From NCBI RefSeq assembly GCF_030384885.1, contig NZ_CP128613.1: a DNA stretch of 64,000 nucleotides; one strand, 5' to 3'. Source of the DNA: Escherichia coli (GTDB taxonomy: Bacteria; Pseudomonadota; Gammaproteobacteria; Enterobacterales; Enterobacteriaceae). The notes beneath the pieces are model-generated. The model made no database searches. It worked only from the letters and a program-made list of their open reading frames with translations, and was not told where the DNA came from. Position numbers and translations under genes: made by a program. Positions 21,870-33,780 of the stretch are shown piece by piece (positions within the stretch are counted from its first letter, which is position 1; each line of letters opens with the position of its first letter).

Positions 21870-23692
21870 GCGCAATTTCCCTGATCAATAGCGGCGTGGC
21901 GTGGTTTGTTGCCGCCGCTGTTCTGGCATTTCTCTTTTCTTTTCAAAAGGCGTTAAGCGGCTGGATTGCCGGAATTGGCGGCGCGGTGGGTAGCCTGTAT
22001 ACGGCAGCCGCAGGCTTCACTGTGCTGACTGGCGCGGTTGGCGTGAGCGGCGCGTTGTCGCTGGTAAGCTACAATGTGCAAATCTCTCCGCTTAATGCGA
22101 TTTGGCTGATTACCCTCGGCCTGTGCGGTCTGTTTGTCAGCCTTTACAACATTGACTGGCATCGCCATGCGCAGGTGAAATGCAACGGTTTGCAAATCAA
22201 TATGTTGATGGCTGCTGCCGTCTGTGCCGTCATTGCCAGCAATCTGGGCATGTTCGTAGTAATGGCAGAAATCATGGCCCTGTGTGCGGTGTTCCTCACC
22301 AGCAACAGCAAAGAGGGCAAACTGTGGTTTGCGCTGGGGCGTCTTGGCACTTTGCTGCTGGCGATTGCTTGCTGGCTGCTGTGGCAACGTTACGGCACGC
22401 TGGATCTGCGCCTGCTGGATATGCGCATGCAACAGCTGCCGCTTGGTTCCGATATCTGGCTGCTCGGTGTGATTGGTTTTGGCCTGCTGGCCGGGATTAT
22501 CCCGCTGCACGGCTGGGTGCCACAGGCTCATGCTAACGCCTCTGCGCCAGCTGCCGCGCTGTTTTCCACGGTGGTGATGAAAATTGGCCTGCTGGGTATT
22601 TTAACCCTGTCTCTGCTGGGCGGTAATGCGCCGCTGTGGTGGGGAATTGCACTTCTGGTACTCGGCATGATCACCGCGTTCGTCGGCGGTCTGTATGCGC
22701 TGATGGAGCACAACATTCAGCGTTTGCTGGCTTACCACACTCTGGAAAATATCGGCATCATCCTGCTGGGGCTGGGCGCTGGCGTAACGGGTATCGCGCT
22801 TGAACAACCGGCGCTGATTGCCCTTGGCCTGGTCGGTGGTCTGTACCATCTGCTTAACCATAGCCTGTTCAAGAGCGTACTGTTCCTCGGGGCTGGGAGC
22901 GTCTGGTTCCGTACCGGTCATCGCGATATCGAAAAACTCGGCGGTATTGGCAAAAAAATGCCGGTTATCTCCATCGCCATGTTGGTCGGTCTGATGGCAA
23001 TGGCTGCGCTGCCACCGCTGAACGGTTTTGCCGGGGAATGGGTTATCTATCAATCCTTCTTCAAACTGAGCAATAGTGGCGCGTTTGTTGCTCGTCTTCT
23101 CGGGCCGCTGCTCGCCGTGGGGCTGGCAATTACCGGTGCGCTGGCAGTGATGTGTATGGCGAAAGTTTATGGCGTTACTTTCCTTGGCGCGCCGCGTACC
23201 AAAGAAGCCGAAAACGCCACCTGTGCGCCGCTCCTGATGAGCGTAAGCGTAGTGGCACTGGCGATTTGCTGCGTGATTGGCGGTGTTGCTGCGCCGTGGC
23301 TGCTGCCGATGTTGTCTGCTGCCGTACCTCTGCCGCTGGAGCCTGCTAATACAACCGTTTCTCAACCAATGATCACGTTGCTGCTGATTGCCTGCCCGCT
23401 TCTGCCATTCATCATTATGGCGATTTGCAAAGGCGACCGTCTGCCGTCGCGTTCCCGCGGCGCTGCCTGGGTATGTGGCTACGACCATGAAAAATCAATG
23501 GTGATTACCGCTCACGGTTTTGCCATGCCGGTGAAACAGGCATTTGCGCCAGTGCTGAAACTGCGCAAATGGCTGAATCCGGTGTCGCTGGTACCAGGCT
23601 GGCAGTGCGAGGGGAGTGCGTTGCTGTTCCGCCGGATGGCGCTGGTTGAACTGGCGGTACTGGTGGTGATTATTGTTTCACGAGGAGCCTGA
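21866..23692 (+). CDS. hycC: Formate hydrogenlyase subunit 3, membrane antiporter-like HycC, 608 aa
   Basis: Polytopic membrane protein; operon position. Confidence 0.9.
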   Translation: MSAISLINSGVAWFVAAAVLAFLFSFQKALSGWIAGIGGAVGSLYTAAAGFTVLTGAVGVSGALSLVSYNVQISPLNAIWLITLGLCGLFVSLYNIDWHRHAQVKCNGLQINMLMAAAVCAVIASNLGMFVVMAEIMALCAVFLTSNSKEGKLWFALGRLGTLLLAIACWLLWQRYGTLDLRLLDMRMQQLPLGSDIWLLGVIGFGLLAGIIPLHGWVPQAHANASAPAAALFSTVVMKIGLLGILTLSLLGGNAPLWWGIALLVLGMITAFVGGLYALMEHNIQRLLAYHTLENIGIILLGLGAGVTGIALEQPALIALGLVGGLYHLLNHSLFKSVLFLGAGSVWFRTGHRDIEKLGGIGKKMPVISIAMLVGLMAMAALPPLNGFAGEWVIYQSFFKLSNSGAFVARLLGPLLAVGLAITGALAVMCMAKVYGVTFLGAPRTKEAENATCAPLLMSVSVVALAICCVIGGVAAPWLLPMLSAAVPLPLEPANTTVSQPMITLLLIACPLLPFIIMAICKGDRLPSRSRGAAWVCGYDHEKSMVITAHGFAMPVKQAFAPVLKLRKWLNPVSLVPGWQCEGSALLFRRMALVELAVLVVIIVSRGA

Positions 23693-28701: not shown

Positions 28702-29013
28702 ATGCACATCATTTCGAAAGCGCCATTTGAAGAGTGCGCGCGCAAATATCCTAACGACGCTCTGGCTTTACACTCATTGTATCGGGTTATTAAGGAAACG
28801 GATTTTTCTACGCCAGAAGAAATGCGAACGGCGTTTCCCAACCTCGACAATTTTAAATATCGTAACAAATGGTACGTTCTGGATGTAGGCGGGAACAATC
28901 TTAGGGTTATTGCCTACATAAACTTTGTTAATAAGCGGTTCTTTGTGAAGCACATAACGAATCATGCCGAGTATGACAAACTGACACGTTACTACAGAGA
29001 GAACAGAGAATGA
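28702..29013 (+). CDS. HigB-like type II toxin (RelE/ParE-superfamily mRNA interferase), 103 aa
   Basis: Close architectural and sequence resemblance to K-12 HigB/YgjN (VFPNLDNFKY, VGGNNLRV); AAGGAAG RBS; not placed here in K-12 as I recall. Confidence 0.75.
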   Translation: MHIISKAPFEECARKYPNDALALHSLYRVIKETDFSTPEEMRTAFPNLDNFKYRNKWYVLDVGGNNLRVIAYINFVNKRFFVKHITNHAEYDKLTRYYRENRE

Positions 29014-29429
29014 CTGCTAATGCTGCACGCGCTGTTAAAGCAACAAGAGAACTGGTCAATGCAGTCCCCTTTCTGGGAGGCAGTGACTCAGAAGATGATT
29101 ATCGTGAAGCACTGGAACTGGTCGAATATTTGATTGAAGAAGATGACACCAATCCACTTATCGACTTTCTGGCGAGCCGCATTGCAGAGTATGAAAACAA
29201 CCACGAAAAGTTTGCAGAGTTCGACAAAGCCGTTGCTGCAATGCCGGTTGGCGTGGCGTTACTTCGCACGTTGATTGATCAACATAATCTGACCTATGCG
29301 GATTTGAAGAACGAAATCGGCTCTAAATCCCTGGTCAGTCAGATTTTGTCTGGACAAAGATCCCTGACGATATCCCACATTAAGGCACTTTCAGCCCGAT
29401 TTGGCGTTAAGCCGGAATGGTTTCTTTGA
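29010..29429 (+). CDS. HigA-like antitoxin with C-terminal XRE-type HTH, 139 aa
   Basis: 4-bp ATGA overlap with the toxin gene; C-terminal HTH (SLVSQILSGQRSLTISHIKALSARFGV). Confidence 0.75.
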   Translation: MTANAARAVKATRELVNAVPFLGGSDSEDDYREALELVEYLIEEDDTNPLIDFLASRIAEYENNHEKFAEFDKAVAAMPVGVALLRTLIDQHNLTYADLKNEIGSKSLVSQILSGQRSLTISHIKALSARFGVKPEWFL

Positions 29430-29543: not shown

Positions 29544-32434
<2,891 letters not shown>

Positions 32435-32519
32435 CGGATTTTATCCTGTTATCAGTAGGGTAGAGGTAGTTGTTATCAGTCGACGTGACGGGAAATTGCC
32501 GATGCTGAAACGGAATTAA

Positions 32520-32607
32520 GAAACCGGTTTCACAAAATCATGAATAGTTGATACTGATTAAGCAAGAGGGTTAATTGCTCATTTTTTATATTTGTGAAAC
32601 CGGTCAC
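32520..32607. promoter_or_regulatory. Two LacI/GalR-type operator palindromes in the ascF-ascG divergent region (candidate AscG operators)
   Basis: Perfect 12-bp palindrome GAAACCGGTTTC at 32520..32531 and related GTGAAACCGGTCAC at 32594..32607. Confidence 0.55.
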
Positions 32608-32693
32608 CTGAATATTTTTCCCGCTGCTTGCGCAAGGACAATCAGCCAACGGTGCAGTACACTGCGTTGATTGCGTGTTAAGGGATGAAAATG

Positions 32694-33704
32694 ATGACGA
32701 CAATGCTGGAAGTGGCGAAGCGCGCCGGGGTTTCAAAAGCGACCGTTTCCCGCGTGCTTTCAGGTAATGGCTACGTCAGCCAGGAAACTAAAGATCGCGT
32801 GTTTCAGGCGGTGGAAGAGAGCGGCTACCGCCCAAATTTGCTGGCGCGCAATCTGTCAGCGAAGAGTACCCAGACGCTGGGGCTGGTAGTGACCAACACG
32901 CTTTACCACGGCATTTATTTTAGTGAATTACTGTTTCATACCGCGAGAATGGCGGAAGAGAAAGGGCGTCAGCTGCTATTGGCAGATGGCAAACATAGCG
33001 CCGAAGAAGAACGCCAGGCGATTCAGTATCTACTGGATCTGCGCTGCGACGCCATTATGATTTACCCGCGCTTTTTAAGCGTGGATGAGATTGATGACAT
33101 CATTGATGCGCACAGTCAGCCGATAATGGTGCTCAATCGACGCCTGCGCAAAAACAGCAGCCATAGTGTCTGGTGCGATCATAAACAGACCAGCTTTAAC
33201 GCCGTGGCAGAGTTGATAAACGCCGGACATCAGGAGATTGCTTTCCTTACCGGTTCGATGGATTCCCCCACCAGCATTGAACGCCTTGCCGGATATAAAG
33301 ACGCGCTGGCGCAGCATAGTATTGCACTCAATGAAAAACTTATCGTCAACGGTAAATGGACGCCTGCCAGCGGGGCCGAAGGGGTAGAAACGTTGCTCGA
33401 ACGTGGGGCTAAATTTAGCGCGTTAGTTGCCAGTAACGACGATATGGCGATAGGTGCGATGAAAGCGTTGCATGACCGTGGTGTAGCGGTGCCGGGGCAA
33501 GTATCGGTTATTGGATTTGATGATATCGCAATTGCCCCCTACACCGTTCCGGCGCTCTCCAGCGTAAAAATTCCGGTGACTGAGATGATTCAGGAAATAA
33601 TTGGGCGGCTGATATTTATGCTCGATGGTGGTGCTTATACACCGCCGAAAACCTTCAGCGGAAAACTGATCCGCCGCGACTCCCTCATTGCTCTTTCGCG
33701 ATAA
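32694..33704 (+). CDS. ascG: LacI-family repressor AscG, uninterrupted
   Basis: LacI-type HTH N-terminus (MLEVAKRAGVSKATVSRVL); exact start among three clustered ATGs is uncertain. Confidence 0.85.
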   Translation: MTTMLEVAKRAGVSKATVSRVLSGNGYVSQETKDRVFQAVEESGYRPNLLARNLSAKSTQTLGLVVTNTLYHGIYFSELLFHTARMAEEKGRQLLLADGKHSAEEERQAIQYLLDLRCDAIMIYPRFLSVDEIDDIIDAHSQPIMVLNRRLRKNSSHSVWCDHKQTSFNAVAELINAGHQEIAFLTGSMDSPTSIERLAGYKDALAQHSIALNEKLIVNGKWTPASGAEGVETLLERGAKFSALVASNDDMAIGAMKALHDRGVAVPGQVSVIGFDDIAIAPYTVPALSSVKIPVTEMIQEIIGRLIFMLDGGAYTPPKTFSGKLIRRDSLIALSR

Positions 33705-33717
33705 GCATTGTCATCAC

Positions 33718-33745
33718 ATGTCATCGTCACTAGTGTCGATGACAT
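33718..33745. promoter_or_regulatory. Dyad ATGTCATCG-N10-CGATGACAT, candidate FhlA UAS upstream of hydN
   Basis: Perfect 9-bp inverted arms read directly; FhlA binding inferred from operon context. Confidence 0.4.
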
Positions 33746-33780
33746 CGTTTATTCTGCATTGCAGAATTTAATTTCTTTAA

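Follow-up and report, generated by a model that had tools for sequence, protein, structure and literature searches.

The asc locus in the window (the whole stretch of Escherichia coli DNA that was analysed, 64,000 nucleotides) was, with a probability of about 85%, the wild-type E. coli module in which a weak CRP-dependent promoter serves ascFB, AscG occludes it from an operator, and AscG competes with CRP at a second site. In the mechanism that we propose, a weak sigma-70 promoter of ascFB would lie between a CRP box (about -70.5) and the AscG operator (about -2 to +12), and cAMP-CRP would be needed to recruit RNA polymerase to it. AscG dimers on the operator would block the polymerase or open-complex formation, and in Escherichia a weaker second AscG site within the CRP box would allow the repressor to compete with the activator as well. 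On arbutin, salicin and cellobiose ascFB would be expressed only if ascG was inactivated. Since such tight repression would not be relieved by the nominal substrates, loss of ascG (e.g., through IS186) would be required for activation. The ascG gene would have its own divergent promoter, about 30 bp ahead of the start codon.

For K-12 the locus and its repressor were already established, as were the sequence of the operator and the dependence on CRP, and these elements were unchanged here. The phenotype of an ascG deletion and the AscG binding experiments had also been published in substance for K-12. The mildly new angle was that the CRP box held an AscG half-site, which appeared to be essentially Escherichia-specific.

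The asc locus and its structural genes

The locus contained the following three genes:

29544-30968, minus strand: ascB, 6-phospho-beta-glucosidase, 474 aa, intact (NCBIfam NF007356)
30977-32434, minus strand: ascF, PTS cellobiose/arbutin/salicin IIBC transporter, 485 aa, intact (NCBIfam NF007311)
32694-33704, plus strand: ascG, LacI/GalR-family repressor, 336 aa (open ORF, identity to K-12 b2714, Pfam domains)

Between positions 29544 and 34380 the order was ascB and ascF on the minus strand, a 259-bp gap (32435-32693), and ascG and hydN on the plus strand. The ascF gene, which started at 32434 on the minus strand, and ascG were divergently transcribed. The K-12 arrangement hycI-ascB-ascF / ascG-hydN-hypF was matched on the opposite strand, with the same genes and the same neighbours. 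Accordingly, the assignment of this region to asc in the preliminary description was borne out by the position of ascG next to hydN-hypF, by the divergent ascF and by the K-12 gene order.

Both structural genes gave full-length family matches: AscF scored 1026 bits against NF007311 (cut-off 722, model positions 1-485 of 485) and AscB 1087 bits against NF007356 (cut-off 623, positions 1-474 of 474). AscF was 99.4% identical to its K-12 counterpart, and ascB had the same length as in K-12. The dN/dS values were 0.02 for ascF and 0.065 for ascB, and all three genes, ascG included, were under strong purifying selection with respect to K-12 (dN/dS 0.02-0.065). The family matches together with dN/dS indicated that ascF and ascB were intact and not decaying. 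Thus, the description of a repressed but intact system was supported, as the three genes were full length and the system looked repressed but functional.

A 1.5-kb query spanning ascG and the operator region was compared with 5426 complete E. coli genomes. It matched 4871 of them, in 4698 cases nearly over its full length. Most matches had 90-95% identity, and the top one was E. coli 2013C-4282 (99.9%), where the RefSeq annotation of the locus was ascG and ascF. Since 4698 of the 5426 genomes carried the region nearly full length, an uninterrupted ascG was the wild-type state and not a distinguishing feature of this strain. The IS186-interrupted ascG belonged to an activated laboratory mutant (PMC3505978 Table 1).

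The asc region of the window differed from K-12 by about 5% of nucleotides overall. We considered a locally imported asc allele (about 94% identity to most E. coli) and rejected it: the hyc and hyp flanks showed a similar divergence (92-98% identity per 200 bp), so the divergence from K-12 was not specific to asc.

Two further observations concerned the neighbourhood of the structural genes. At 28702-29429 on the plus strand were two genes with a 4-nt overlap, one for a HigB-family toxin (103 aa, PF09907) and one for an HTH antitoxin (139 aa, PF01381). This higBA pair was located between hycI and ascB, where K-12 had only about 160 bp, and it carried the same annotation in E. coli 2013C-4282. 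In the ascF leader (32447-32480) the direct repeat TGTTATCAGT occurred twice, 24 nt apart, and a 24-bp deletion in the ascF leader of E. coli 99-3165 removed one repeat unit.

The AscG operator, the CRP box and the predicted promoters

The preliminary description had proposed two palindromes in the ascF-ascG gap as candidate operators. Both palindromes were present and the first was indeed an AscG operator, but the second had to be corrected, since it was at root a CRP box.

32519-32532, no strand assigned: AscG operator (site 1), AGAAACCGGTTTCA, overlapping the predicted ascF transcription start (literature match, K-12 identity, conservation)
32593-32608, no strand assigned: CRP box (site 2), TGTGAAACCGGTCACC, with an embedded AscG left half-site and centre TGAAACCGGT (CRP consensus, ChIP-seq match, conservation)

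Site 1 was a known and conserved AscG operator. Within it, GAAACCGGTTTC at 32520-32531 formed a perfect 12-bp palindrome, and the complete site (AGAAAC-CG-GTTTCA) was palindromic with a central CG and lay near the regulated promoter, as do the operators of the LacI/GalR family. The SELEX consensus for AscG is reportedly TGAAACCGGTTTCA, and site 1 alone matched this string with at most one mismatch within the 64-kb window, where about 0.01-0.02 such matches were expected by simple arithmetic. Site 1 was identical to K-12 base for base. It was also the reverse complement of TGAAACCGGTTTCT, an AscG binding site 'adapted from' P_ascF (PMC8667592 Table S3). From the P_ascF-derived site AscG repressed strongly at +1, whereas at -61 it had almost no effect (PMC8667592).

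In K-12 and other Escherichia both palindromes were identical to those of the window, and the sole variation was an A/G difference at 32519, outside the 12-mer. At this outer base of the operator K-12 and O157 had A like the window, whereas O104:H4, NCTC9082 and others had G. With a 40-nt query around site 1 only 2263 genomes were found, as opposed to 4561 with a query around site 2, counts that were consistent with the single-base split at 32519. As for further AscG boxes in the window, we found only chance-level matches with three mismatches, at 23574 and 25526, and thus no evidence of other targets.

Site 2 was primarily a CRP box. Of the 10 positions specified in the CRP consensus TGTGA-N6-TCACA it matched 9 (one mismatch), and its palindrome (GTGAAACCGGTCAC at 32594-32607, in the same gap) was perfect only as GTGA-N6-TCAC, i.e., in the CRP pattern. 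Like site 1, it was base-for-base identical to K-12. Upstream of ascFB there are reportedly two AscG sites, of which one overlaps the CRP box. When site 2 was read in the AscG register, 11 of 14 positions matched; the left half and the centre were perfect (TGAAACC-GGT) and the right half was poor. The embedded half-site probably makes 32593-32608 a second, weaker AscG site, at which the repressor would compete with CRP. The reverse complement of TGTGAAACCGGTCACC was GGTGACCGGTTTCACA, the CRP ChIP-seq site reported for ascG/ascF in ETEC H10407 (PMC4287617).

A consensus promoter scan found no promoter-like site in the ascF-ascG gap, and therefore both promoters were proposed from conservation only:

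32537-32565, minus strand: predicted ascF promoter, -35 TTGCTT (32565-32560), 17-nt spacer, -10 CATGAT (32542-32537)
32635-32663, plus strand: candidate ascG promoter, low confidence, -35 AGGACA (32635-32640), 17-nt spacer, -10 TACACT (32658-32663)

On the ascF side, conserved TTG and CATGA blocks separated by 17 nt lay between sites 1 and 2, and in an alignment of 81 intergenic sequences the CAAGA and ATCATGA columns were 80-99% conserved. The putative hexamers place the ascF start near 32530, inside the operator. They were weak (3/6 and 4/6 consensus matches), which was compatible with a CRP-dependent promoter. From this predicted start the centre of the CRP box would be at about -70.5, close to a class I position (-61.5/-71.5), and CRP may have a class I geometry at ascF.

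On the ascG side, a 17-nt block CGGTGCAGTACACTGCG (32650-32666), which preceded the ascG start by 28-44 nt, was conserved in 79 orthologous loci at about the level of the operator. It was a near-palindrome (GCAGT-AC-ACTGC) of which the window contained no other good copy, and it may hold the -10 element of ascG or a protein-binding site.

Conservation of the regulatory module and alternative readings

A scan of species-representative genomes yielded 80 loci with AscG relatives (66-97% identity), 79 of which had usable intergenic regions. They came from Escherichia, Citrobacter, Enterobacter, Lelliottia, Leclercia, Klebsiella, Raoultella, Kluyvera, Phytobacter, Aeromonas, Sodalis and other genera, and in 80/80 loci ascF was located divergently upstream. 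In 79/79 orthologous loci, from Escherichia to Aeromonas, there was a palindrome of the AscG type whose core AACCGGTT did not vary; its commonest form was GGAAACCGGTTCCA.

All 79 loci also had a CRP-like box, at 73-75 bp from the operator in 75 of them and at 65 bp in the remaining four (Escherichia sp. ESNIH1, Enterobacter sp. ENT03, Pseudescherichia vulneris and Enterobacteriaceae bacterium UBA7338). The shorter spacing was a deletion of approximately one helical turn that preserved the helix face, and both spacings were compatible with helical phasing. In contrast to this fixed spacing, the operator lay between 27 and 94 nt from the ascF ATG, depending on the locus. Thus, the comparative footprint pointed to the operator and the CRP box as a module of fixed spacing from Escherichia to Aeromonas.

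For the six-base spacer of the CRP box, 35 different sequences occurred among the 79 loci. The spacer AACCGG was restricted to Escherichia-type loci, and Kluyvera-type loci had AACCGA or AATCGA. The other Enterobacteriaceae and Aeromonas had an unrelated spacer in the same CRP box and a single AscG operator. The half-site for AscG within this box therefore appeared to be essentially confined to Escherichia, with a partial version in Kluyvera. From the spacing and the spacers of the 79 loci it followed that the conserved unit consisted of the operator, the promoter and the CRP box. Since AACCGG was found only in Escherichia-type loci, the second AscG site was a lineage-specific feature superimposed on the CRP box, and its absence from the box in most genera meant that the half-site was not essential to the conserved mechanism.

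These data also bear on whether site 2 binds AscG at all. It could be purely a CRP box that looks like an AscG site by coincidence, site 1 being the only place where AscG binds. The three mismatches of site 2 to the AscG consensus were at chance level for the window (4 such matches found and 2.9 expected), 70 of the 79 loci had a CRP-box spacer without AscG-like sequence, and CRP occupies site 2 in vivo (PMC4287617). Nevertheless, we considered a single operator unlikely in E. coli. A secondary source stated that there were two AscG sites at ascFB (PMC3505978), and the gap contained no other AscG-like sequence that could be the second one. Moreover, sites 1 and 2 shared a perfect 14-nt inverted repeat (ACCGGTTTCACAAA / TTTGTGAAACCGGT), and 4546 E. 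coli records contained the 38-nt stretch around site 2 at an identity of 99% or more.

If both sites bind AscG, they might act together by trapping the promoter in a loop, like lac O1/O3 or gal OE/OI, which would account for the tight silencing. The two sites flanked the predicted promoter, and paired operators were common among the LacI/GalR relatives (PMC3505978). Their centres, however, were 76 bp apart, or about 7.2 helical turns, which put the sites out of phase. AscG ended at residue 336 without a LacI-type tetramerisation tail and aligned to dimeric relatives, most genera had a single site, and the results with a LacI-AscG chimera were reported to 'contrast' with two-site behaviour (PMC3505978). 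Looping was thus slightly less credible still than a single operator, and occlusion at site 1 together with competition at site 2 remained the preferred reading.

AscG, crypticity and related systems

The preliminary description had read ascG as a full-length LacI-type repressor, and this reading held: the protein had 336 aa, aligned without gaps to K-12 AscG and contained both domains. The ORF was open from 32685 to 33704; the start annotated in K-12 corresponded to 32694, and further in-frame ATGs were present at 32685 and 32691. AscG was identical to K-12 AscG (b2714) at 326 of 336 residues (97%, gapless). The LacI HTH domain PF00356 was recognised at residues 3-48 (76 bits, cut-off 27), and the effector domain was full length, with PF13377 and PF00532 (Peripla_BP_3 included) spanning residues 60-330. 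The solved AscG structures were matched with E=1.8e-212 (PDB 3dbi, aligned over 1-336) and E=5e-186 (3brq). Among the NCBIfam models there was none specific for AscG, and the best matches, GalR and GalS, were both under their cut-offs. For this reason the orthology rested on identity and synteny, from which we concluded that AscG was the orthologue of E. coli b2714.

Inactivating changes not visible by eye, which had been named as a possible flaw of the earlier reading, were looked for and left no sign. The comparison with K-12 gave 50 synonymous and 10 non-synonymous differences (dN/dS 0.05), and residues 1-60, which form the DNA-binding domain, did not differ. With this domain and the operator both identical to K-12, AscG of this strain probably binds the ascF operator and represses ascFB. 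It was very improbable that the 10 substitutions, although they included three adjacent ones at 314-316 and P334L, killed the repressor and left asc constitutively CRP-dependent in this strain, given the low dN/dS, the unchanged DNA-binding domain, the occurrence of nine of the 10 variant residues among the commonest at their positions in other orthologues (the tenth, G209S, was at a variable position), and the presence of the same allele in E. coli 2013C-4282 at 99.9% identity.

The closest known system was asc of K-12 (b2714-b2716), for which the AscG operators and the CRP box have reportedly been described. The window had the same genes, order and neighbours, and both regulatory sites were identical. 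It differed by the nucleotide divergence of about 5% and by the higBA insertion beside ascB; a functional difference was not evident. GalR/GalS and LacI belong to the same protein family as AscG and use palindromic operators with a central CG, and in gal and lac, as in asc, one promoter region is the target of both a repressor and CRP. However, the second site of asc was inside the CRP box, whereas that of gal and lac is inside a gene. Also unlike gal and lac, the asc sites were not helically phased and AscG had no known inducer among its nominal substrates.

CytR, also a LacI-family repressor, works against CRP at CRP-dependent promoters, as AscG would do here. Its binding position is between CRP dimers, and it makes contact with CRP, whereas the AscG half-site overlapped the CRP box itself. 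This implies that AscG would compete with CRP for DNA rather than act by protein-protein anti-activation of the CytR type. A literature search with the AscG consensus string matched only papers on Pseudomonas PtxS, a LacI-family regulator that responds to 2-ketogluconate and whose published operator is the perfect palindrome TGAAACCGGTTTCA near -10/+1 (PMC5902321). PtxS and AscG were alike in operator sequence only, as their effectors, regulons and lineages differed.

K-12 grows on arbutin, salicin and cellobiose through asc only when ascG is inactivated, and no physiological inducer of AscG has been established, including for the nominal substrates (PMC3505978). Comparative genomics predicted cellobiose-6-P as the AscG effector (PMC4052901). 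E. coli whose asc genes are not mutated depends on ascB to grow on cellobionic acid (PMC4403981). Because of this requirement and of the purifying selection on the three genes, the operon could be called cryptic only in a relative sense. One rather speculative possibility, which we regarded as improbable though somewhat less so than a single operator, was that the Escherichia-specific half-site, by letting AscG shut out CRP in addition to RNA polymerase, was the change that made asc 'cryptic', and that orthologous loci elsewhere stayed inducible. If so, the half-site in the CRP box would contribute to the crypticity of the operon in E. coli.

Downstream of ascG, the gap before hydN contained a 28-bp near-perfect palindrome, ATGTCATCGTCACT/AGTGTCGATGACAT (93% complementary), and after it a hairpin, ATTCTGCA-T-TGCAGAAT, that had a T-rich tail and resembled a terminator. 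These elements, at 33718-33767, could be the ascG terminator and/or regulatory sites of hydN.
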